50,158 nucleotides of DNA from Escherichia phage LHE71. The DNA lies in the sequence record OP455115; one strand, written 5' to 3'. Shown here piece after piece: positions 3,809 through 28,277 of this stretch (position 1 is the first letter of the stretch; every line of letters starts with the position of its first letter). The position numbers and the translations under genes were made by a program. Under the pieces are notes generated by a model. That model was not told where the DNA came from, searched no databases, and saw nothing but the letters and a program-made list of their open reading frames with translations.

Positions 3809-3865
3809 GAGTGATTCCTCGTTTGTTGGTGTAGGGGAATCATAGCGCATTCCCCTTGATAGGTT

Positions 3866-4084
3866 TTAGCAATTCGTGCTATTCGTTTTAATAGTGATGC
3901 AAAAATAATTTTTTAAGCACGTCACCACGCGCGCTGAATCGACTTGTGGAAGCCTTAAAATTTCATGGACCAGTTGCACTGGCGACACCTCAGATTTGTA
4001 GTAGTGTGCGATTCTGGAGGTGTTTGGGCGCATTCCTTCCACTGCGTCGCGTGCTGCATCTTCTGCTGTCATGATAGTAGCCAT
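3866..4084 (-). CDS. Hypothetical protein
   Basis: 72-aa ORF with AAGGGTG SD; its 3' end runs into the palindromic motif. Confidence 0.4.
   Translation of the reverse strand: MATIMTAEDAARDAVEGMRPNTSRIAHYYKSEVSPVQLVHEILRLPQVDSARVVTCLKNYFCITIKTNSTNC
3867..3881. promoter_or_regulatory. Palindromic intergenic motif instance (TAGCAATTCGTGCTA)
   Basis: Inverted repeat; 22 nt to TATGAT on the minus strand, with -10 inside a hairpin loop. Confidence 0.45.
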
Positions 4085-5173: not shown

Positions 5174-5356
5174 TCACGTTCCAGAATTTATTGCCTCATG
5201 AATGATAGATACGTCCTGAGACGTGAGTTCGTGCAATGCGTGCCCGATAATCTCCATTCGGTCATTCGGCGCCATTCCACGAAGTGATTCACGTATGCGC
5301 GATGCCTTGTCGTAAATCTGCCATTGGGTGAGTCGTGTAGCCATAGCTGATTCCAT
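5174..5356 (-). CDS. Hypothetical protein
   Basis: 60-aa ORF with protein-like composition; preferred over the overlapping 5188..5382 frame. Confidence 0.4.
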   Translation of the reverse strand: MESAMATRLTQWQIYDKASRIRESLRGMAPNDRMEIIGHALHELTSQDVSIIHEAINSGT

Positions 5357-5378
5357 GATGAGTTAACTCGAATGTCTC

Positions 5379-5591
5379 TCATTGATTTTCTGCCTCTTCC
5401 GCCGCCAGGATAAGCGCCGCCGCTAATTTGCGAGCCGCGTCAGGTGAGTATTGCATCAGTGTTTGGCCATCTGCGTAACCCTCAGGATCGAAGTCCAGGT
5501 TGACAACATTACCACGAACGGTTCCCATCGTGACGCTGACCTCTGCTTGGTCAAAGTTAACATCGTCAATACGTACAGTTTCCATAATCAT
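5379..5591 (-). CDS. Hypothetical acidic protein
   Basis: 70-aa ORF downstream of a promoter-like module. Confidence 0.5.
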   Translation of the reverse strand: MIMETVRIDDVNFDQAEVSVTMGTVRGNVVNLDFDPEGYADGQTLMQYSPDAARKLAAALILAAEEAENQ

Positions 5592-5643
5592 TTCCTCTTC
5601 GTTGTTGATATGGCAATCATAGCTGACTACCCGATTTATTGTT

Positions 5644-5658
5644 TAGCAATTCGTGCTA
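5644..5658. promoter_or_regulatory. Palindromic intergenic motif instance (TAGCAATTCGTGCTA)
   Basis: Inverted repeat; 22 nt to TATGAT on the minus strand. Confidence 0.45.
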
Positions 5659-5722
5659 TTTAATAACTTCTTGATGCGATTGCGATAAAACTGCATTATG
5701 TGCTCATTGTGCCAATTGCTCA

Positions 5723-6220
5723 TTATTTCACCTCGTAGCGTACAAGCGTTCCGCGCTTAATGCTGATTTCACCTGATACCGTCTTGTTCTTAAATCCGCC
5801 GTAATGCAACAGGAGAATCACCACATCATCGTGTACCTCAATAGTTTTAGGAGTGGCGGTAATATCGATCCATGATTCGCTATCAAGTTGGACACCCTTT
5901 AGCGTCGCGCTCAATGGCATGTTCTCGATCTGAGTGCACTGTAGCGATGGCTTGATTTCTGGCTTTGCGCTATGAAAGATGGCTCGGCCAGCTTTCCAAC
6001 CAGCTTTCCAGCCAGGACCAACATACTCAACATAATATGGAAGAGATGGGATGTTATCAGGGTTGTGATTGTTATGAAGCTCAATGAGATTGCCAACGAT
6101 AGACGGATGGCACTCATTGAATGACGAATCTGTTGCACGGTCTTTGCTATGGCAGGTTATTTTCCCGCAGCTAATAGTGTTAAAAACCACAGGGAATTTA
6201 ATCTCGTTTAATTTCAACAT
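5723..6220 (-). CDS. Hypothetical Cys/His-rich protein
   Basis: 165-aa ORF next to the DpdA-like/YhhQ-like pair; N-terminal C-x4-CH...CH cluster; no family recognised. Confidence 0.5.
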   Translation of the reverse strand: MLKLNEIKFPVVFNTISCGKITCHSKDRATDSSFNECHPSIVGNLIELHNNHNPDNIPSLPYYVEYVGPGWKAGWKAGRAIFHSAKPEIKPSLQCTQIENMPLSATLKGVQLDSESWIDITATPKTIEVHDDVVILLLHYGGFKNKTVSGEISIKRGTLVRYEVK

Positions 6221-6287
6221 AATGATTTCCTCTTATTGGTTGCTCTGCTTCAATAAGGACACTATAACAAATGTCCTTGCGGAAGGT

Positions 6288-7115
6288 TTAGCAATTCGTG
6301 CTATTCCACTCGCTAATTTTCGGAGGCTTTACAGATTCAATGCAGTTCTTCAATATCGCACACCTTTCGGCAAGTATGTCTGATTTGCTGCCACCTTTGG
6401 AAAGGCATTGATCTACAGCTTGCTTAACGTCATCAGTATCAATCCACTTATCCTTGTGGATACTCCTCCTGCAAGCCTCAATTGTCACTACTTTATTTAT
6501 GGCAAGGTACTTAGGAACGTTGCAAGCCAGGTTAGTGCTATCTGCTGAGTTTAGAGGGTAGTTACCTAAAACTCTTCCATCAAGCATCCTTAATCCATGC
6601 AGCTTCACGTCAACCTGTGATTCTTTAACTGCTGAGAAAGCCTCGCTTATTCTTTGCTTCCACTTAGCGGATCTGACTGTTGCAAATTCACCAGAAGAAC
6701 CCATGCATACCCAATCCCATTTTTCACACAGACTTATCAGCCTACTGATTGGCTCATGCATATGCCACACCGGGGCGGCCTTGCTTTTAAGATCTGACGG
6801 CAGTTGAGATATGAGCTTATCATTATCCTCCGCGCTTCCTGTTATATCATCAGGGATAACAAAGAATCTCAATTTAGGATTATCAAACCAGTCAGGAAGA
6901 AAGTTGAAATAAAACTCCCTCCAGTCCTGAACCTTTCCGCTCTTCCACTTTGAGAATGCCCCATTATCTATGCATACCGTCTCAGCCACATCGAAGGCTA
7001 GCTTTATCTGGTCTGGTCGCTCAAAGGATACGAACGCACCACTTCCACGGTGCGCAATTCGTGCAATCCTTCCCTTATCTCCCCATATTGGAGATCCGTG
7101 AAAGTGAATTGTCAT
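6288..7115 (-). CDS. Alpha/beta enzyme, candidate tRNA-guanine-transglycosylase-like DNA-modification enzyme (DpdA-like)
   Basis: 275 aa with alternating strand/helix pattern; IDNGAF resembles the TGT DSGGFQ motif; ATGA-coupled to the upstream YhhQ-like gene. Function is inference. Confidence 0.4.
   Translation of the reverse strand: MTIHFHGSPIWGDKGRIARIAHRGSGAFVSFERPDQIKLAFDVAETVCIDNGAFSKWKSGKVQDWREFYFNFLPDWFDNPKLRFFVIPDDITGSAEDNDKLISQLPSDLKSKAAPVWHMHEPISRLISLCEKWDWVCMGSSGEFATVRSAKWKQRISEAFSAVKESQVDVKLHGLRMLDGRVLGNYPLNSADSTNLACNVPKYLAINKVVTIEACRRSIHKDKWIDTDDVKQAVDQCLSKGGSKSDILAERCAILKNCIESVKPPKISEWNSTNC
6289..6303. promoter_or_regulatory. Palindromic intergenic motif instance (TAGCAATTCGTGCTA)
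   Basis: Inverted repeat; 22 nt to TGtTATAGT (extended -10) inside a hairpin loop on the minus strand. Confidence 0.45.
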
Positions 7116-7591
7116 AGTTTAAATTTCCTCATGATAGCTATGATTATAAATGCGCCAACTGTCTTAGCTGCGAATTGTGCCAATGAAACATCAATCATTA
7201 CCGTTCCGAATGCTATCATCGGGAATGCTATTGAGTCAATCGCAGCCGACACTGTATTTGCGGGAATGGATTTACTGTAGAAATCACCACGCTTGAATTT
7301 GAACGTTATAGCGCTGCCTGTGCCAGCCAGCATTACCGATGACACTGAGGCGATCGCTATCATCCCTGCGTCTGGATCTATCAAAACGGTAGCAATACCT
7401 GCTGAAAGGCAAGCAATCATAGAATGCCAGAAACCAAATTTGTGCTGTATCTTATCCCTGATAACCATATCTGCCGATATGATTACGAGCGCATTAATCG
7501 GAGTGGCCCACACACCGAAATATGCAACCGACAGGTTTGCTGAAACATACAGCAAAACGAACAATGCAACCATTACTGATAACTTACGCAT
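7112..7591 (-). CDS. Multi-pass membrane protein, YhhQ/queuosine-precursor-transporter-like
   Basis: 159 aa, several TM helices; motifs SANL...W, SAD, NTVSAAIDSIAF..IAFG line up with recalled E. coli YhhQ motifs. Confidence 0.45.
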   Translation of the reverse strand: MRKLSVMVALFVLLYVSANLSVAYFGVWATPINALVIISADMVIRDKIQHKFGFWHSMIACLSAGIATVLIDPDAGMIAIASVSSVMLAGTGSAITFKFKRGDFYSKSIPANTVSAAIDSIAFPMIAFGTVMIDVSLAQFAAKTVGAFIIIAIMRKFKL

Positions 7592-7712
7592 ACTGGCTCT
7601 CCTGAGAAAATTGGTATAATTTGGATATTCGGTCTTACCTGCCTGATTCTGTTTACGGTTGATTCGTCACTTAGAGGATAAAAAACACCATTTACTAGCC
7701 ACCCTATCCTAG

Positions 7713-7883
7713 TCATTCGTCAGACTCTCCAATATATTTAGCCTCTTTCCATTGAGAGTATGCATCTTGCTCGCTGAACCCGTAGCCAGTAAAGCCACCA
7801 CCTTGACACATGAATCGCTTAAATTTCATGATTCCTTTGTAGCTGTAGCCACGGTCGGTGATTTTGCATTCTTCGTTAATCAT
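7713..7883 (-). CDS. Small hypothetical protein (56 aa)
   Basis: ORF absent from the supplied track (below its size cutoff); SD GAGGAAA upstream of ATG; directly downstream of a promoter-like module. Confidence 0.4.
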   Translation of the reverse strand: MINEECKITDRGYSYKGIMKFKRFMCQGGGFTGYGFSEQDAYSQWKEAKYIGESDE

Positions 7884-7942
7884 CTTCGTTTCCTCGCTCG
7901 TTGTCGATGGGATAACTATACCAGGTTATCCCGATCCAGTTT

Positions 7943-7957
7943 TAACAAAAAGTGCTA
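7943..7957. promoter_or_regulatory. Palindromic intergenic motif instance (TAACAAAAAGTGCTA)
   Basis: Inverted repeat; 22 nt to TGgTATAGT then leader TTATCCCATCGACAACGAG on the minus strand. Confidence 0.45.
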
Positions 7958-8278
7958 CTCTACGATGAACTCAACATTTACCGGGGTCCACTCTTCCATC
8001 CTGGGGATTGAGAGATTTTCCACCTCGCACATATTCCCCTCAACCTTGACAAGTTTTAATTTTTGGTTATTCACCTTCTGCATTCTCATCACGAGGTATC
8101 TTGCTTTCTCGTTTATGGTGCGTTTATCCACGCCTTTTGTGAAGTACATGGGGCCAACAGTGTCGAGGTTTATTTTGATTGACCGCTTACCAATCAGTGC
8201 ATCAGCTATTACCTGAATGTTTGCGTTCTGCTTTGCGTATGCGTAGCGGCCCTCTTCTGTTGTTACGTGTTCAAACAT
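7955..8278 (-). CDS. Hypothetical protein
   Basis: Start set at ATG 8278, which has SD GGAGGA 6 nt upstream. Confidence 0.5.
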   Translation of the reverse strand: MFEHVTTEEGRYAYAKQNANIQVIADALIGKRSIKINLDTVGPMYFTKGVDKRTINEKARYLVMRMQKVNNQKLKLVKVEGNMCEVENLSIPRMEEWTPVNVEFIVE

Positions 8279-8290
8279 AATCACTCCTCC

Positions 8291-8866
8291 TTACAGTCCA
8301 CATTTTTCTATATGCGCTTTCATCTGGCGAACCAGGTCGCGCACAGTGCTTACAGTCACATCACCTTGCTCAATGTCATCAATATCAGGAGTGAAAGAAT
8401 CAAGGCAGTCAGCCAGGCTAACTTTTTTCCGGCTGCGGCGCTTCTTCACCGGAACCTCTTCGTCACTCACCGAGATAGTAACGACTCGCAACTTCTCATC
8501 GTTCATGGTCACGCTAACCTTGACAGATTTGCCGATCTTGGAGAAGTGGCGCGATACGATCGGGGTGATGAATGAGGATTTAAACTTCTCGTTAATCTCT
8601 TCAGTCTTCCCTAACAGCCAGGACTCAGCATATCCGCTAACGGCATCGTCATCAGCGTCAGGAACTGACTTTCTCACTGCTGCCTCAGCCATCTGAGTAG
8701 CATCGAATGTGAACTCGGTATTCTCGCCATCACCATAAAGCTGGTCGCAAGCCGCCCGGATAACATCAGTCACCTTCGCCTCCTGGCGCTGGTTAACGGT
8801 CACGCCAGCTTTCTCGTAAGCTGCCTGGATTGCTGCCTGAACTGCATCTGATTGGTAAGAACTCAT
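8291..8866 (-). CDS. Hypothetical acidic protein, first gene of leftward early arm
   Basis: Start set at internal Met MSSYQ with SD AAGGAG; the longer ORF N-terminus has no SD. Confidence 0.55.
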   Translation of the reverse strand: MSSYQSDAVQAAIQAAYEKAGVTVNQRQEAKVTDVIRAACDQLYGDGENTEFTFDATQMAEAAVRKSVPDADDDAVSGYAESWLLGKTEEINEKFKSSFITPIVSRHFSKIGKSVKVSVTMNDEKLRVVTISVSDEEVPVKKRRSRKKVSLADCLDSFTPDIDDIEQGDVTVSTVRDLVRQMKAHIEKCGL

Positions 8867-9505: not shown

Positions 9506-9567
9506 AGCATCAGCCAGGTGAATCGGGTATGATTCATCTCATCAACCAATCAGTAGAGGAAGCAGCA

Positions 9568-9693
9568 ATGAGAGTTAAACAGATTTGTAGTCAGTGTGCT
9601 GGTCGTGGTTTTACTCTAGTCCCGTTATTCACTGGAGTCTGGACAATGCAGCGAATCACGTGTCCGGCCTGCAACGGTCAGGGTAAGCGATAA
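9568..9693 (+). CDS. Small zinc-ribbon protein (41 aa) with two CxxCxGxG motifs
   Basis: ORF absent from the supplied track (below its size cutoff); SD GAGGAAG 6 nt upstream; CSQCAGRG and CPACNGQG match the DnaJ-type zinc-finger repeat. Confidence 0.45.
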   Translation: MRVKQICSQCAGRGFTLVPLFTGVWTMQRITCPACNGQGKR

Positions 9694-9716
9694 GGTCAAT
9701 CAGGAGAATGCAACAA

Positions 9717-10423
9717 ATGAAATTAATCTGGTCACTATTTGACGGTTCAGGTCTTGCTGGTCATGAGCTGGCAAAGCAAGGTCACAAGGTGATGTGCTTC
9801 AACTTTGACGGAGCCGATCACGGTGATTACGCAAAGTACAATGCCAGAGTCGAGCATCCGAACATTGAGTATGTGAACGTCTTCATTGATGAGAAGTTCG
9901 AACGTGATGCTATCGCTGGCGTGTACGGAAAGCCGGATTTTATTATGGCCTTCCCGCCGTGCACTGACCTGGCTGTTAGTGCCGCCGCCGCCTCTTTGCC
10001 AGCAAGCGTGAACGTGATCCGTTATTCCAGGAGAAGGCTGTTGCCACCGCAAGGATTGCTGCGAACATTGGCGAGGCGCTTGGTGTTACTTACATCATTG
10101 AGAATCCGGTGAGCGTCCTGTCGTCTGCGTGGAGAAAACCAAATCACTCCTTCAATCCCTGGGAGTATGGCGGCTATCTTCCCGAGAATGACGTGCATCC
10201 CTGGTTCCCGATGTATATTGCGCCGCGAGATGCTTACCCGAAGAAGACTTGTCTGTGGACCTCTGACGATTTTGTCATGCCAAAAAGGAAACCTGTAAGA
10301 CTGCCTGACGGGTACTCTGCACAGCAAAACAAGCTGGGCGGCAAGTCTGCCAAAACGAAGCTGATACGATCCCTGTCGCCGCGTGGATTTTTCAAAGCGA
10401 TCGCAAATAGCACTTTTTGTTAA
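9717..10423 (+). CDS. DNA (cytosine-5)-methyltransferase-like gene interrupted by a -1 frameshift at a GCC repeat
   Basis: N-terminal frame has motif I-like LFDGSGLAG and motif IV-like FPPCTDLAVS; downstream frame has RDPLF and IIENPV (motif V/VI-like); frames switch within 9980..9992. Confidence 0.4.
10408..10422. promoter_or_regulatory. Palindromic motif of promoter module
   Basis: TAGCACTTTTTGTTA, then 22 nt, then CATAAT (10445..10450) and leader TACCTCATCGAAACGAG. Confidence 0.5.
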
Positions 10424-10944: not shown

Positions 10945-11316
10945 ATGTTTAAACAATTCGTAGACCTGGACTTCTCAGCCAGCACAGCAATCCAGACTGA
11001 CGAGAAAGAGAACGTAGCGATCGATAACATTGCGCGCAAGATTTACAACAAGCAAGAGAGGGCAGTGAGAGTCGCTCTAAGCGCTTATTACGGTGTAAGT
11101 GATGCAATGGAGTGCGTGAACCGAGTAACCCGCGTGGTGGACCGTTTGGGCGTGTCTCGTTTCGTTGATAACGACACTGGCGAGACAATCATTCAGCTTA
11201 ATAATCCATCTATGCGTACCGAGCTTGGAAATATTGCATTATGGGGCGTGGCTAACTACTCAATCACTGTAAACTCCTGCATTGCGGATCGTGTTAAGGA
11301 GGCATTGTATGAGTGA
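10945..11316 (+). CDS. Hypothetical protein
   Basis: 123-aa ORF with SD. Confidence 0.5.
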   Translation: MFKQFVDLDFSASTAIQTDEKENVAIDNIARKIYNKQERAVRVALSAYYGVSDAMECVNRVTRVVDRLGVSRFVDNDTGETIIQLNNPSMRTELGNIALWGVANYSITVNSCIADRVKEALYE

Positions 11317-11509
11317 TAATATCTACCGCGTGGTTGCGATCTCACGCAAGACGCAGAAGAGCGTGATCGCTTACATGGGTAGTAGCGCCATTGAAGCTAC
11401 GGACGCCTTCGAATCATTGAAGAACAACGAGGGATTTATGAACACGTTCCTCGTTCGACTTGAGCGTCTCGAACCTGTTATCATTGATGAGGCGCGAAAG
11501 CTATCCTGA
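11309..11509 (+). CDS. Hypothetical protein
   Basis: Start at MSDNIYRV with SD AAGGAGG; overlaps upstream stop. Confidence 0.5.
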   Translation: MSDNIYRVVAISRKTQKSVIAYMGSSAIEATDAFESLKNNEGFMNTFLVRLERLEPVIIDEARKLS

Positions 11510-11525
11510 CTGGTTAGGGGGAATA

Positions 11526-11846
11526 ATGAACCATACTTACAAAATCACAACGAAGTCACCGAAGATTAACGGGAGCACGGTTGCAGCACTGAATAACGCG
11601 GCGGCAATTCACGAAAAAAATATCATGGAGCGCGTGAAGGCAGCGGTAGGTAGATTCTACGGGATCAACGCTGATATTGCCGACAGTAAACGACTATTCA
11701 AATACGTGCCAGGTCATCCATATAGCAGGATGATTGATATCAAGCATGAAAAAGAATTGGTTCGAATCGGATCGCTTAGCATTGACGAGTTCGACCATAG
11801 CATCAACCTGGTGACGGCGTATCAAACTTGGGACGGTAAAAAATGA
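11526..11846 (+). CDS. Hypothetical protein
   Basis: Start at MNHTYKIT with SD GGGGGAA. Confidence 0.5.
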   Translation: MNHTYKITTKSPKINGSTVAALNNAAAIHEKNIMERVKAAVGRFYGINADIADSKRLFKYVPGHPYSRMIDIKHEKELVRIGSLSIDEFDHSINLVTAYQTWDGKK

Positions 11847-18639: not shown

Positions 18640-18882
18640 TAAGATCGTGTCGGATTTAAGTTCTTCTACGTCTTTCTGAATGATTGAAGGCCAACGCTCG
18701 ATATATTCATTTTTTATCTCATCGAAAGACATGTCAAGAGAACTAGTGAACTCCCACAGATCGCAACCAATAACATCCTGAGTCAATCCGTTTTGCTCCA
18801 TAATTTCGCAGCACGTAGCGCGATAAAGAAGCCATAACCCTTGATCAGTTAATTTAACAGGAAACATTTTTTCGCTCATCAT
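18631..18882 (-). CDS. Hypothetical protein
   Basis: 83-aa ORF, ATGA coupled to Dam gene. Confidence 0.5.
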   Translation of the reverse strand: MMSEKMFPVKLTDQGLWLLYRATCCEIMEQNGLTQDVIGCDLWEFTSSLDMSFDEIKNEYIERWPSIIQKDVEELKSDTILQH

Positions 18883-19592
18883 ACTTTCCTCACCTTTGCT
18901 CGTTTGTTTTTAACGGAAGGACAAATGCTTGTGATTGGGATGTAGTGAGTCTGTTGCACCTCACCTTCTTTAAGCTCGCGCATAATAAAAATCACCGAAC
19001 CTTTGTTATTACCATCTACAGCCTTTCCAGTTTCACCGGATATGAAAGCCAGACGACCGGATCGTGCGTATTCATTGCCGTCAATATCCTCAGTCAAATC
19101 AGCTTCAATCCAGATGATTTCAGCCGCGTGCTGTCGAGCCTCAGTAAACCACGCCGTCGAGTTATCGGCAGGTAAAAGAATATCGATCTGGTTGTTGTGC
19201 TCCATTTGCTCAATCGCTTTCTTGACGAATATATCAGGTCGACTGTAAGGAGGATTTAACCATACGTGCTTATTTTTACCCCACCAACGTTTTAAGCAGT
19301 TTGTTTCCTGGGAATAAAACTTCTCGCAAACTTTATTTTCTTCGCTTGCCGCAGCGTCGAGATCATATTTTCCGTAGCGCCCCTCAAGGTATGCGATAAC
19401 CTCGCGTGGAGTTGACCATAAATCACGAACAACATCCGGCGTATTTGTTCCCTTGTATCGACGCCCTGAAATCTCTTTGCAGGTTGGAGTTTTCAATGCT
19501 TGATAATAACCTCCTGATGCTATTGCTTCGCGAGTGAATGAGCAACCAGTTTCTGCAAAGTCGATTGTTTCGATATCATCAAAGTCTTTCAT
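18879..19592 (-). CDS. DNA N6-adenine methyltransferase (phage Dam-like)
   Basis: Catalytic NPPY motif in WLNPPYSRPDIF; SD AAGAGGA. Confidence 0.7.
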   Translation of the reverse strand: MKDFDDIETIDFAETGCSFTREAIASGGYYQALKTPTCKEISGRRYKGTNTPDVVRDLWSTPREVIAYLEGRYGKYDLDAAASEENKVCEKFYSQETNCLKRWWGKNKHVWLNPPYSRPDIFVKKAIEQMEHNNQIDILLPADNSTAWFTEARQHAAEIIWIEADLTEDIDGNEYARSGRLAFISGETGKAVDGNNKGSVIFIMRELKEGEVQQTHYIPITSICPSVKNKRAKVRKV

Positions 19593-20080: not shown

Positions 20081-20560
20081 TTACACCCCGTGATTTTTAT
20101 GAAAATCAAGCTCTATCTCTGCTGACTTTCTCGCCTTCACTGCATCATCAAAGCTATCCCCTTCATATAACATCTTTTTCCTCTTGTTGCTTTGTATCTG
20201 AGCTACCCATTTCCTTTTCTTTGAGTGCCAGCTTACTCCAGTAACGCCAGATTTGTTATTTGAATATGATGATTTATTTTTCATGTTAACTTGCTTAGTG
20301 ACAAGAAGAAGGTTTTCTATTATGTTGTCAGTCCTGTCGTGATTTATATGGTCTACTTCCATCCCTTCGGGTATTTTTCCGTAGTGCATCTCCCATATTA
20401 TTCTATGAGCATGATACGCTTTCTTGCGCATCATGACTTTCACGTAACCCTCATCACTTATAGTTCCAGCAAGCGTTCCAGCTTGAACTCTATTATTTCT
20501 AGTGACGAGCCAGTAAAGATTACCGTCGCTGTACTTAAGGTATTTTGACCATTCAATCAT
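20081..20560 (-). CDS. HNH homing endonuclease with AP2-like DNA-binding domain
   Basis: HNH core EVDHINHDRTDNIIENL; C-terminal GVSWHSKKRKWVAQI AP2-like segment. Confidence 0.7.
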   Translation of the reverse strand: MIEWSKYLKYSDGNLYWLVTRNNRVQAGTLAGTISDEGYVKVMMRKKAYHAHRIIWEMHYGKIPEGMEVDHINHDRTDNIIENLLLVTKQVNMKNKSSYSNNKSGVTGVSWHSKKRKWVAQIQSNKRKKMLYEGDSFDDAVKARKSAEIELDFHKNHGV

Positions 20561-22575
20561 TCCGGGATACCCTCCATACCGAAGTCTTTGCGTGAAATAA
20601 TATCTTCTTTCTTCTGGTTGCGCCTATGAGTAACGCGTACCGGATGCGCTATATGATGAGAGTATTGCACGATCTTGATGGCGTTCTTCATCCCGATAAA
20701 GTAGCGACGCATTTTAGGATCTGATACGTGAGGTAATACTCCTTTCGTTTTCCATAGCGTACCGCAAATCTTAGAGTCGGACTCAGGAAAGAATTTTTCA
20801 TACGCCTTGAACTCATCACCGTCATCATTAATAAGTGTGTATTTGTATATCACACCTTTTTGATTTTTGGTTAACGTAACTTCAAAATTCTTGACCTCGT
20901 ACCAGTCATTCTTAGTGTACGCCTTACCGGATAACTTAAGGTTAGGATCGACAAGAGAAACATCGCAACAGCGACAGACTCTGGCCACAACGTCATTCTC
21001 CGCACCACACCCTTTAACAAGGATTTTTCCTGTACGCTCATCAACCTGGTCCTCGCAAATCTGAGAAGTCCAGAAGTGATCGCAGCGCTCGCCGTCGATA
21101 ACGTTAACGCATCTGCGAGCGTAGAAGCTATTTACGCAACCACACTTCGGACACGTTTTCGGGTCTTTTCCGTTTTCAAAACGCTTTTGGAATTGTGCCT
21201 GCTCAAGTATCGGATCGAAATAAAGCTGCCCCAGTTCATCCATCGTACCTGCAAAATCCCATACCAGATGGTCTTGCTTAACCATACCCTCAGCAACCTG
21301 CCATGATTTAAGCAGTCGCATACCCCTACCTAAAAGCTGAATTAGCAAGGTGAGAGATCCTATCTTGCGAAGTATTACGCTGAAATCCCAATTTGGAACG
21401 TTAACGCCAGTAGTTAGCGCCATGACCTGAAAGGTATATTTAATTTTCCCGGCCCTCACATCGTCAAGAATTTTCTTGCGCGTTTTCGTGTCTGTATCGC
21501 CAGTAATAATTGCATAGGTGCTTCCTGGTGGTAGTGCCGCCGCCGCCTCTTTGCAGTGACGCACCCCGGCGCACGTGATTAGAACTGCGTTACGCTCTTC
21601 AGCCTTTTTGGCAACCATTTGCATGATTCGCTGAGTAAGAGATTTATCATGAAGGATCTCATCCTCCATTGCCTTCATATCTTTCTCTGCAAAGTCCTGT
21701 ACCCCATCCTCGCTTGAGGCCTTAAATTTATCAAGATCGTAGTGAACTCCGTCCGTAGAACCGAATATAGTCGGAACGACTGAGCCAAACTCAATAAGGT
21801 AGTTGGTGTCTATATCAGTAACGCGCTCACGCCAGAATCCTAACGCCTTTGGATTCTCAACAAGAATTGGAACTACGCCCCTAAATTCAGATCCAGTCAT
21901 ACCAAATATTCTAAGGTCGTGACCGTGAACCTCTTTACAGCGGCGCATCATCTCCATAATTACGATCGTGTACTGACTGCGTTTAGTTCCAAGCAAAGGT
22001 TTTCCATCATTACCAATCAGGGGAATATCTCCGTCCATGATAATTTTCCCTTTCTCGCCCCTCATCTGTTCCATCGTTTCCTTGCCTTCGATGGCTTGCG
22101 CAAGGTCTTCCCAATCTACCTGATGACATTCATCAATCCCGATTACGTGCGGGACAAAATCAGCCAACTCATTATTGAGTCCATTTGCAACAGTACCCTC
22201 AGAGCCGACCACGATCGGGAAGTAGCAAGACTTGATTCCAAGTGACGCTGAGAATATAGAGTTAGTTACGCCGAAGTTGTCGATCTCCTCACTATCCTGA
22301 TCGACAATCTCACCCTGTCGTGCCAGCACGAGCATTTTCAAGCCCATTTTTTGACACTGCTTTGCAACCATAGCAAAAATGATGGTCTTACCCGCAGACA
22401 CTGACGCTTTAACAAAGAATGGATGCTCGTAATTTGATAGGCGTTTTGCGATCTCAGCATAAGCAACAACCTGGTACGGATACGGAACGATCTCACCAAC
22501 AGTGAATCGTTCTTGAGTTCGTTTTATATAGTCCTCGCCAAGTAATGCGATTTGCTTTTTGATGTTAATTGTCAC
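20557..22575 (-). CDS. Superfamily-2 ATP-dependent helicase
   Basis: Walker A SVSAGKT, motif II DECH, C-terminal Cys cluster; GTG start with AAGGA SD. Confidence 0.75.
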   Translation of the reverse strand: MTINIKKQIALLGEDYIKRTQERFTVGEIVPYPYQVVAYAEIAKRLSNYEHPFFVKASVSAGKTIIFAMVAKQCQKMGLKMLVLARQGEIVDQDSEEIDNFGVTNSIFSASLGIKSCYFPIVVGSEGTVANGLNNELADFVPHVIGIDECHQVDWEDLAQAIEGKETMEQMRGEKGKIIMDGDIPLIGNDGKPLLGTKRSQYTIVIMEMMRRCKEVHGHDLRIFGMTGSEFRGVVPILVENPKALGFWRERVTDIDTNYLIEFGSVVPTIFGSTDGVHYDLDKFKASSEDGVQDFAEKDMKAMEDEILHDKSLTQRIMQMVAKKAEERNAVLITCAGVRHCKEAAAALPPGSTYAIITGDTDTKTRKKILDDVRAGKIKYTFQVMALTTGVNVPNWDFSVILRKIGSLTLLIQLLGRGMRLLKSWQVAEGMVKQDHLVWDFAGTMDELGQLYFDPILEQAQFQKRFENGKDPKTCPKCGCVNSFYARRCVNVIDGERCDHFWTSQICEDQVDERTGKILVKGCGAENDVVARVCRCCDVSLVDPNLKLSGKAYTKNDWYEVKNFEVTLTKNQKGVIYKYTLINDDGDEFKAYEKFFPESDSKICGTLWKTKGVLPHVSDPKMRRYFIGMKNAIKIVQYSHHIAHPVRVTHRRNQKKEDIISRKDFGMEGIPE

Positions 22576-24174: not shown

Positions 24175-24181
24175 CTATGTT

Positions 24182-24196
24182 TAGCAATTCGTGCTA
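24182..24196. promoter_or_regulatory. Palindromic motif in operator position of tail fibre promoter
   Basis: TAGCAATTCGTGCTA between the predicted -10 and the SD AAGGAG. Confidence 0.45.
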
Positions 24197-24217
24197 TTTA
24201 CTTAAGGAGTTTATACT

Positions 24218-26490: not shown

Positions 26491-27138
26491 TTATTCGAAG
26501 TTGGTGATTGATTGAGATTGTACAGGCTTCGCGCTAGTTGCTTCAACCTGTTTTTTCTGTTCCGGTTGCGCCGGGCGAATGCCGCGAGCTTTACCGATCT
26601 CAAACTTAGCCTTAAGTGCGTTGTAGTGATCCTGAATGATTGACTTGCTTGCCGTGTCCGTCTGGCGGTAAGCGTTAGCCCATACCTCTTTCAGTGATTC
26701 GATATCTTCACACGCATCAAGTTCTTTTTTCCAGTCCTTGACAGATTTTACTGCAAGCTGAGCGTCGTCATCACTTTGGCTAATCCCCAGCGCTGCGGCA
26801 AGAGAGTAACGTCGCGCATACGTCATTGCGGAACCTACACCTTGCGGATCGCGTTTTGCAATCGGCATCATCATGAAGAATTTGGCCCATTGCCCGGATT
26901 TGTGAATCAGCATAGTCTCAAGATGGAATGTTGTTTCCGTGCTGGTATCAAGCATTGATTGCAGGATCATGATATCGTTATCGGTTAACGCCGGACTAAC
27001 TGCCGCCATCATTGCGTCAAGAGTTGCGTATGAATTTTTCAGGTGATTGTTTTTAGCGTCCTTCTTTGCCTTAGCGAATTTATTTCGAGCATTAAACAGT
27101 GCTGGGAGGATTTCGTTTGTTTCTGGTGATAATTGCAT
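26491..27138 (-). CDS. Erf-family single-strand annealing protein
   Basis: Start at MQLSPET with SD AGGAGA; conserved YARRYSLAAALGI segment. Confidence 0.6.
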   Translation of the reverse strand: MQLSPETNEILPALFNARNKFAKAKKDAKNNHLKNSYATLDAMMAAVSPALTDNDIMILQSMLDTSTETTFHLETMLIHKSGQWAKFFMMMPIAKRDPQGVGSAMTYARRYSLAAALGISQSDDDAQLAVKSVKDWKKELDACEDIESLKEVWANAYRQTDTASKSIIQDHYNALKAKFEIGKARGIRPAQPEQKKQVEATSAKPVQSQSITNFE

Positions 27139-27212
27139 CTTAACTTCTCCTGATTGGTGTATTAGGTGCATTATAACACCTCATTAATTATTTGTTTAGC
27201 TATTTGTGCCGT

Positions 27213-28277
27213 TTACTTGTTTTGATATCTTACCCATGACGGCGTTTCAAGTTCGATCTCGCTTGCGTCGCCAGCATATCCGGGCCAAACGTCCATCTCA
27301 GAGCAAGCCTTATAAGTGTGGACCACGCTAATATACTGATTGCGACCTATTCTGATTTGCTCCATAGTCATGCGGTAAGCAAGGGCAATGTAAGGTTCCT
27401 TTTTCTCCTGTGCCAGCAATCGAACTACGATCGGAATATCTTCCGGGAAGTTTCCTTCAAATGCTCCAGCCTGGATTGCACGTCGCAGCAGGTCGTGCTG
27501 CAATGCCATTTTCAGGTAATAGCCGTGATTGTATGCCAGGCGCGGGAACTCTAACGGGTTAGCGCTCATCGTGGTTTTGAAGTCAGTGATAATCAGAGCT
27601 TCAGGAAAAATCACGTCTTCAAATACCGGATCGCCATTCTCATCATAACCAGTCAGCACACGACCCGGAACATTCTCTTTGTAGTCAAGATGGTCGATCC
27701 GAACCTTAACTTTGACTCCGGATATCTCACCGAAGATTGAGATCTCACGCTGCGCCGTTTCGCTGTTGATGCACGCCTCATGATCAGGATTTTGCTCAAG
27801 TATAGCCCTCATCTTCATGCATGCGTCGTATTTGTCAGCATCAACAAGTTGCTTTCCTTCAGCGCGCGCCTCAGCTTCTGCGATCAGTTCAATCAGGTAT
27901 TGAACGTTTAGTTCCTCACCACAATCAACCATCATTTTGATGAGGTCCGGGTACTGCTTACCGGATGTACCTTTCAGGCCGAATGATTTTAATTTTGCTG
28001 CCAGCGCCGCCTGCGAAGTAATCAGATCCTTAAACTCTGCCGGAGCCGGGCAACGGGCATACGATGCAGTAAACAGATCTCGGCTCTCAAAGTTGGTATG
28101 CGACTGAGTACCGAACTCCAGCGCTTTCGTTGTCTCATTCTTCTTGAATCTCCAGTTAGCCGGGCAAGTTTGATAGATTTCTGCAAGGCTCGATCCGCTA
28201 ACATACTCTGCCGACCAACCTTCGTTACTATGATACTCGTCATTAGAAAGCTGACTTGATGTGAATACTTGGAACAT
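27213..28277 (-). CDS. Recombination-associated exonuclease (PD-(D/E)XK-like)
   Basis: 354 aa, SD AAGGAG; IITDFKTT segment; sits in operon with Erf and SSB. Confidence 0.5.
   Translation of the reverse strand: MFQVFTSSQLSNDEYHSNEGWSAEYVSGSSLAEIYQTCPANWRFKKNETTKALEFGTQSHTNFESRDLFTASYARCPAPAEFKDLITSQAALAAKLKSFGLKGTSGKQYPDLIKMMVDCGEELNVQYLIELIAEAEARAEGKQLVDADKYDACMKMRAILEQNPDHEACINSETAQREISIFGEISGVKVKVRIDHLDYKENVPGRVLTGYDENGDPVFEDVIFPEALIITDFKTTMSANPLEFPRLAYNHGYYLKMALQHDLLRRAIQAGAFEGNFPEDIPIVVRLLAQEKKEPYIALAYRMTMEQIRIGRNQYISVVHTYKACSEMDVWPGYAGDASEIELETPSWVRYQNK

Follow-up and report, generated by a model that had tools for sequence, protein, structure and literature searches.

Escherichia phage LHE71 carries a dcm gene that is split between two reading frames, and this allele, which should be null as judged from its sequence, probably arose in this Tunavirus phage through one mutation templated by the phage's own helicase gene. 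The stretch of DNA that we analysed (the window, 50,158 nucleotides of sequence record OP455115) corresponds approximately to the whole genome of a T1-like phage (Drexlerviridae, Tunavirus), and positions 9717 to 10423 in it form a single gene, read in two frames and split at a GCC tract. A reading made earlier from the sequence alone had described a C5-cytosine-methyltransferase-type gene broken by a frameshift at this tract, and this was borne out: over residues 1-232 the joined protein matches PHROG 757 'DNA methyltransferase' far beyond chance level (E=5.6e-80), an intact relative of 234 aa (P0001) shares 94% identity with it, and the sole indel across dcm in comparison to ten aligned relatives is a gain of 2 nt at the GCC site. 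By sequence comparison, the gene codes for the compact 'Dcm-like' C5-cytosine methyltransferase (~234 aa) that T1-like phages have and that makes up PHROG 757. The features referred to below are the following.

9702..9706, plus strand: AGGAG ribosome-binding site of dcm, 10 nt 5' of ATG 9717 (sequence reading)
9717..9980, plus strand: 5' part of dcm in its native frame, codons 1-88 (tblastn with SA32RD Dcm)
9981..10112, plus strand: out-of-frame tail of 43 aa (AAAASLPASVNV...), ending at TGA 10110-10112 (translation)
9995..10423, plus strand: 3' part of dcm in the -1 frame, counterpart of residues 93-234 (tblastn with SA32RD Dcm)
9977..9999, plus strand: 23-nt block TAGTGCCGCCGCCGCCTCTTTGC, 23/23 identity to the helicase segment 21532-21554
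21532..21554, plus strand: putative donor segment, within the ATP-dependent helicase gene (ORF 20557-22575, minus strand)
18879..19592, minus strand: second methyltransferase gene, Dam (N6-adenine), intact (97-99% identity to the Dam of T1 and relatives, aligned in one piece)
26491..28277, minus strand: recombination module, consisting of a recombination protein (26491-27171) and an exodeoxyribonuclease VIII homologue (27213-28277)

The coordinates and motifs given in the sequence-only reading (9717, 9980, 9981-9992 and 10423; FPPC, RDPLF and IIENPV) are as described when the DNA is translated. The start ATG AAA TTA at 9717 is annotated likewise in relatives, and ATG 9708, chosen by the ORF listing, was rejected as the dcm start for being spaced too near the ribosome-binding site. 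From ATG 9717, frame 0 encodes MKLIWSLFDGSGLAG...FPPCTDLAVS, with motif I (FDGSG) at 9738-9752 and motif IV (FPPC, Cys82 codon at 9960-9962) lying 5' of the lesion, and residues 1-84 of the SA32RD Dcm align to 9717-9968 in frame 3 with 95% identity (tblastn). The (GCC)4 tract occupies 9981-9992. The -1 frame is open from 9980, just after a TAG at 9977-9979, to the stop at 10421-10423, and encodes RDPLF as well as ...LFASKRERDPLFQEKAV...IIENPVSVLSS...IRSLSPRGFFKAIANSTFC; in tblastn, residues 93-234 of the SA32RD Dcm align to 9995-10420 in frame 2 with 92% identity. Motif VI (ENP) is encoded in this -1 frame at 10100-10108, with the Glu codon at 10100-10102, together with the KK pair equivalent to K175/K176 and the C-terminal motif IRSLSPRGF. 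The gene order around dcm is common to Tunavirus genomes of ~91% nucleotide identity: the site is syntenic, in the early region with two 61-aa ORFs downstream, in SH2, EF3-1, SA32RD and an ERZ contig alike, and the Tunavirus counterparts are annotated as DNA methylase or 'Dcm-like C5 cytosine methyltransferase'.

In the protein, the catalytic Cys82 comes before the break, and the region of the catalytic loop with the invariant Ser88-Gly89 comes after it. In the -1 frame the TAG at 9977-9979 is followed by no ATG, GTG or TTG until GTG 10109, which lies directly 3' of the ENP codons and is the earliest possible start in that frame; therefore Glu128 is absent from every predicted product. The +2 nt frameshift at 9982-9993 leaves no intact ORF, and motif VI is missing from both predicted products. 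Translation would give 88 native residues followed by 43 out-of-frame residues, the latter having no counterpart in relatives, and the part holding the essential ENP glutamate would lack a start codon, so that the phage is predicted to have no 5mC of its own making on its DNA. Among the options offered by the sequence-only reading, a pseudogene, i.e. a null allele, is the one favoured by the evidence.

The nature of the encoded enzyme could be assessed from the family as a whole, which is large (2826 clusters in a word-indexed search, 937 representatives after 50% clustering and tblastn matches in 1484 phage records) and uniform in length, nearly all members having 225-250 aa. The sequence-only reading had remarked that the joined product of ~235 aa had no obvious target-recognition domain, and this holds for the family at large: the large domain that would lie between motifs VIII and IX is absent from it, and thus its lack is a family trait unrelated to the break. 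In an alignment of 26 diverse members, F8, G10, S11, G12, P80-P81-C82-T83, S88-G89, E128-N-P and K175 are invariant, D9 and K176 are nearly invariant, and the C-terminal IRSLTPRGF motif is conserved.

The comparison with the Pfam C5-methyltransferase profile (PF00145), suggested in the sequence-only reading as a check, came out divided. The joined protein has no match to it, the intact relatives SH2 and P0001 reach 12.2 and 11.4 bits, both below the cut-off of 22, and 17 of the 26 family members score at an E of 1 or better (top E=1.3e-6), so the family is a distant relative of the profile and not a clean member. No match for the joined protein was found in NCBIfam, nor in HMMER searches of PDB sequences with either the single protein or a family profile. 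The fold and the literature do support the assignment: the AlphaFold model (pLDDT 87, pTM 0.86) contains the catalytic-domain fold of C5-methyltransferases, its top Foldseek matches are DNMT3A/3B (E about 5e-7), and ~185 of the 234 residues superpose on the DNMT3B catalytic core. By the predicted model, then, the encoded enzyme has a catalytic fold resembling that of DNMT3 and almost no target-recognition domain, and the placement of the family among the C5-methyltransferases is based on this fold comparison together with the literature. The likeness to DNMT3A/DNMT3B is one of fold and compactness, with 13-17% identity and no close kinship, and those enzymes, unlike the phage family, are eukaryotic, multidomain and oligomeric. 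In comparison with the classical enzymes of PF00145, such as M.HhaI, M.HaeIII and E. coli Dcm, the phage family is ~100 residues shorter and without the large target-recognition domain, and most of its members, the closest intact relatives included, fall below the gathering score.

The family does have a characterised member. The bas06_0055 gene of phage KarlJaspers (711 bp, annotated as 'Dcm-like C5 cytosine methyltransferase') encodes a protein that aligns with P0001 over its full length at 55% identity (E=5e-88), with C82, E128, K175 and K176 aligned, and by this homology the gene in the window belongs to a family with an experimentally studied representative. Two other proteins, P0003 and P0007, were considered as KarlJaspers orthologues and rejected by tblastn. 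The 711-bp dcm of K42, a KarlJaspers-like member of the Drexlerviridae, was identified in a 2023 preprint (Wang et al., bioRxiv) as the trigger of retron Ec86 (10.1101/2023.08.16.553469), a retron native to E. coli BL21(DE3) (10.1101/2023.08.16.553469). Expression of K42 Dcm, the one protein for which activation of Ec86 is known, was toxic solely when Ec86 was present, a C82A/E128A/K175A/K176A mutant was inert, and 5mC was detected on the msDNA by LC-MS, the CCWGG specificity being assumed and unmapped (10.1101/2023.08.16.553469). A 55%-identical homologue is reported to form 5mC (10.1101/2023.08.16.553469), and in view of this the earlier suggestion that the product may not be a conventional methyltransferase is not supported. 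CCWGG sites are over-represented in the window (90 observed against 52 expected), so that avoidance of this motif gave no clue to specificity.

The lesion itself is more than a simple indel in a repeat, which had been one of the earlier proposals. At this site relatives read GTTAGT GG(C/T) GC(N) (GC/CG)N CA(C/T) TT(T/C) GC, i.e. V-S-G-A-(A/R)-H-F-A, or GTTAGTGG.GC...CA.TTTGC in terms of the relative-type dcm sequence, and every relative examined is in frame through it with VSGA(A/R)HF; the window reads GTTAGT GCC GCC GCC GCC TC TTT GC. The change comprises at least 3 substitutions and 2 extra bases within 12 nt, with flanks nearly identical to those of relatives, and the minimal converted tract (9982-9993) puts 12 nt in place of the relatives' 10 nt, so that the frame shifts by +2 and the invariant Ser88-Gly89 region is lost. 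This 12-for-10-nt replacement is identical to a segment of the helicase gene, an identity that accounts for all the substitutions and for the +2 nt. At a length of 23 nt or more the 50-kb window has just two exact direct repeats, of which the pair 9977-9999/21532-21554 is one. In shuffled sequence the number of matches averaged 0.01, although up to 3 mismatches were permitted. We found nothing relevant around the site in the way of local repeats or hairpins that could serve quasi-palindrome switching.

The direction of transfer can be read from the relatives. The helicase gene of the window is intact, with 98% identity to the SA32RD helicase, and its coding strand across the segment encodes ...CKEAAAALPPG...; SA32RD and DELF2 have a variant of the segment with 3 differences (AAGTGCTGCCGCTGCCTCTTTGC), which in SA32RD still encodes K-E-A-A-A-A-L, and Sso008 has the exact 23-mer in its helicase gene with normal sequence in dcm. 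The conserved KEAAAAL and the helicase copies of Sso008, SA32RD and DELF2 therefore indicate that the sequence is original to the helicase gene and secondary in dcm. The (GCC)4 tract is absent from the dcm of all relatives examined. Normal dcm alleles, as seen in five relatives, already align to the helicase segment over ~31 nt, both having CCTGG.TG.TAGTG at the left end, CTTTGC at the right end and GCCGC in between.

The simplest account is one templated event, in which a nascent or invading strand would have paired at this chance look-alike in the helicase gene, at a distance of 11.5 kb and in the same strand orientation, and would have returned after copying between 12 nt (9982-9993) and 23 nt from it. 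The mechanism would be a strand switch or a short-patch ectopic conversion, overwriting 10 nt of the codons for the catalytic loop (...VSGA(A/R)HF...). The exonuclease VIII homologue and the recombination protein, 99-100% identical to SA32RD_25 and SA32RD_26, are candidate catalysts of the ectopic pairing, a role we ascribe to them by supposition. We infer the templated event through relatives that are only ~91-92% identical in DNA (SA32RD, EF3-1, Sfin-1 and LeonhardEuler are at ~91% to the window). In phage T4, templated mutations by strand switching to imperfect repeats have been described (Schultz, Carver and Drake 2006, as presented by Kreuzer and Brister 2010, PMC3016281). The T4 work was based on a mutant screen, whereas the event proposed here would have occurred in one natural genome, with a donor in another gene 11.5 kb off and a RecE/RecT-type module instead of the UvsX system of T4.

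Several other origins of the patch have to be weighed against a templated mutation. It is rather unlikely that the +2 patch exists only in the consensus, through an error of sequencing, assembly or polishing, and that dcm is intact in the real phage. Frame breaks in conserved genes are frequently errors, and error-ridden relatives are on record, namely Sso008 with many split genes and ISF001 with ~14% divergence in both methyltransferase genes. Here, however, 12 nt replacing 10 nt and copying another locus exactly is no homopolymer or repeat-unit error and would be atypical of any platform; the exact shared flanks measure just 5-6 nt on each side, too short for a k-mer graph crossover or a mis-mapping of reads; and in the comparison with SA32RD no second conserved gene is broken in frame, dcm being alone in this among the ~62 genes common to both when all 75 SA32RD proteins were compared to the window. 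That the helicase identity is a coincidence, built up from point mutations and a small insertion in a decaying pseudogene, appears highly implausible. The resemblance of normal dcm to the helicase segment does lower the number of changes needed, but at least 3 substitutions and a 2-nt insertion within 12 nt would all have to match the donor, against the mean of 0.01 near matches in shuffles, and the rest of dcm has no other indel or stop and keeps 92-95% protein identity to intact relatives.

The sequence-only reading had also raised the possibility of a phase-variable or programmed shift. Full-length Dcm would then be made part of the time, through changes in tract length or through slippage of ribosomes or RNA polymerase, and a four-unit simple repeat placed precisely at the frame overlap invites this idea, all the more as (GCC)4 is rare (2 occurrences in the genome, where 0.24 would be expected for four-unit repeats of any trinucleotide). 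As far as the sequence can tell, we nevertheless consider it very improbable. Phase variation is rejected because the GCC unit has 3 nt, so that a change in unit number keeps the frame, and because relatives are without the tract. A programmed frameshift is rejected because there is neither a slippery site nor a downstream structure: AGT GCC GCC GCC GCC TCT TTG C (9978-9999) contains no X XXY YYZ heptamer in frame 0, 9980-9997 contains no A/T run, and the RNA of 9994-10093 has a folding energy of -26.5 kcal/mol, no better than that of shuffled sequence with its mean of -28.3 (z = +0.57). The two-frame arrangement is not conserved, the relatives examined all being in frame, and a shifted product would read VSAAAAL, having lost the invariant Ser-Gly of the catalytic loop. 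Length variation of the tract in populations, which the earlier reading proposed to look for, finds no basis either. The tract occurs in no relative's dcm, and the dcm/GCC junction was matched only by unrelated contigs, one in IMG/VR (L005, high in GC, a chance match) and two among metagenome contigs (L042 and L043). With the tract absent from the dcm of relatives and from related IMG/VR and metagenome sequence, nothing is conserved on which frame switching could act. A helicase-templated mutation thus stays the probable origin of the allele.

The loss of dcm is not confined to LHE71. We compared 38 named close relatives at a protein identity of at least 80%, from which Sso008 was excluded because of split genes throughout its genome and ISF001 because of the ~14% divergence in both of its methyltransferase genes. 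Among the remaining 36, dcm is broken in five, by lesions that are all unlike that of the window.

ADB-2: loss of 1 nt at position 360
DELF2: nonsense mutation at codon 62
IME18: loss of 1 nt at position 581
phiD2-2: insertion of a G at position 538
FCWL1: the same insertion of a G as in phiD2-2 (position 538) and a replaced 3' end

In the same five genomes the genes for Dam (0.71 kb) and the tape-measure protein (2.87 kb) are unbroken, and breaks per kb are concentrated in dcm (binomial P of 6e-4 to 8e-3, according to the counting of events). In several cases the lesion alters one base of a short homopolymer and might be a sequencing error, the clean control genes notwithstanding. T1 is not found among the close dcm matches, while its Dam and tape-measure genes are among theirs; dcm is therefore an accessory gene. 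We also considered whether the double substitution in DELF2 was templated and rejected this, the longest k-mer shared with another part of the DELF2 genome being 9 nt, which is at chance level; without an ectopic template for the DELF2 lesion, templating is no general route to dcm loss.

What would favour such losses is suggested by the work on K42, in which all four Ec86 escapers carried dcm lesions (10.1101/2023.08.16.553469), namely a 2.3-kb deletion, a 1-bp frameshift and two point mutations 9 bp 5' of the start (10.1101/2023.08.16.553469). The window's gene and the Dcm of K42/KarlJaspers (Bas06) are of the same protein family and similar in length (236 vs 234 aa), and each gene occupies the early region of its Drexlerviridae genome; the window copy differs in being on the Tunavirus branch and in being broken. 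The lesions differ in kind as well, a helicase-templated patch in the window against a 1-bp deletion, a large deletion and an upstream point mutation in the K42 escapers, in which loss of function in dcm, frameshift included, is known as a means of evading defence. The accessory status of the gene, together with selection against it by host defences that sense Dcm activity, would account for the persistence of dcm nulls and for their recurrence in relatives. Beside retron Ec86/Eco1, Type IV restriction and toxicity of Dcm itself are candidates for the selective force. In terms of hosts, IME18 and FCWL1, with dcm broken, and IME167, with dcm intact, were all isolated on BL21(DE3); dcm is broken in 2/3 isolates from BL21 against 4/36 others (P=0.056, low-quality genomes still counted).

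That dcm loss was selected under a Dcm-sensing defence could well be the case, although we would stop short of calling it probable in view of the homopolymer lesions, the intact dcm of IME167 and the P value of 0.056. Alternatively, the null allele is real and neutral, dcm having been dispensable on the propagation host and the lesion having drifted to fixation without any selection by defence, a reading that we regard as possible and on balance somewhat doubtful. It would fit the accessory status of the gene, with no close copy in T1, the growth of IME167 on BL21(DE3) with dcm intact, and the BASEL study, in which methyltransferase genes and resistance to restriction were not simply linked. 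Against it stand the clustering of breaks in dcm relative to control genes of the same genomes and the fact that experimental selection by Ec86 gives the same class of mutant, neither of which is proof of selection in LHE71. A further step, which we consider unlikely, would be that the helicase 23-mer acts as a built-in mutagenic template by which dcm, in those T1-like phages that have this 23-mer in the helicase gene, is knocked out recurrently by the identical patch under a Dcm-sensing defence such as retron Ec86; if that were true, the phage would be a natural escaper and the first field case of templated mutagenesis used to evade immunity.

The kind of gene (a phage Dcm), the kind of mutation (a templated complex frameshift) and null alleles as experimental retron escapers are known already, and what is new is the specific pair of donor and recipient, as well as the indication from relatives that dcm has been lost repeatedly in Tunavirus. 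On a practical matter, the two ORFs should be annotated as one disrupted dcm, and neither as two hypothetical proteins nor as a programmed frameshift. For research on mutation, the allele offers a clean natural case of a complex mutation that was probably templated, with a donor identifiable in the same genome. Furthermore, the state of dcm, which T1 lacks and which carries breaks in 5 of the 36 relatives with genomes of good quality, provides evidence from the field that this methylase may be a liability in some hosts. A T1-like phage that is null for dcm is predicted to be blind to sensing of the retron Ec86 type and to lack phage-specified 5mC, a predicted state that would matter for host range and when phages are selected as tools or for therapy.

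The frame-broken C5-cytosine methyltransferase gene, dcm, adjoins a variable early-gene region (window 5200-8300). When the proteins of the close relative SA32RD were compared with the window by tblastn, no counterpart was found for genes 53-59, 61 and 62, and genes 52 and 60 matched theirs at only ~60% identity. The counterpart of SA32RD_47 (11309-11566) has an in-frame stop within the tblastn alignment and corresponds to a shorter ORF of 75 aa (11282-11509), which is probably a difference of annotation or length and not a lesion. Upstream of dcm lies a small ORF (9529-9693) whose 54-aa product has two CxxC pairs and is zinc-ribbon-like. The related phages SH2, EF3-1 and phiD2-2 have a different gene here, of 70 aa, which overlaps the start of dcm.

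Variation at the C-terminus of Dcm was seen among the relatives. In SH2 (L001, 1140-1170), one additional T in the T-run directly before the dcm stop codon replaces and lengthens the C-terminus, giving 243 aa vs 234 aa, and in JMPW2 (L020) the stop comes 6 codons early. Two public Shigella phage genomes call for comment on their quality. The record of vB_SsoS_008 (L049, MK335533.1), in which the genes for tape measure, tail fibre, capsid, portal protein and primase are annotated as numerous fragments, looks like an error-rich assembly and is unfit for use as evidence of gene disruption. The sequence of vB_SflS-ISF001 (MG049919.1 / NC_047863.1) is probably also of poor quality: its Dcm and its Dam, the N6-adenine methyltransferase, are both only ~86% identical to those of relatives that otherwise agree among themselves at 95-99%, and its Dcm carries P81Q inside the invariant PPC motif.

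Further exact direct repeats, of 18-22 nt, join distant sites of the window (33562/35741, 10406/43468 and 1846/18621), and one of them begins within the final dcm codons. A separate 19-nt motif, TTTAGCAATTCGTGCTATT, occurs in four copies that are identical at 19/19 bases and apparently located just outside coding regions:

3865-3883, first copy of the 19-nt motif
5642-5660, second copy
6287-6305, third copy
24180-24198, fourth copy

Because its core is palindromic (TAGCA-N5-TGCTA), we suggest that the motif acts in the early region as an operator or promoter element.

Across the whole window, GGCC is much rarer than expected (58 observed vs 115 expected, z = -6.2) and GGWCC is also depleted (26 vs 47, z = -3.3), whereas CCWGG is commoner than expected (90 vs 52, z = +5.5) and CCNGG is likewise over-represented. 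Avoidance of restriction sites is a possible cause of this bias, as is a lack of such avoidance where Dcm-type sites are concerned.
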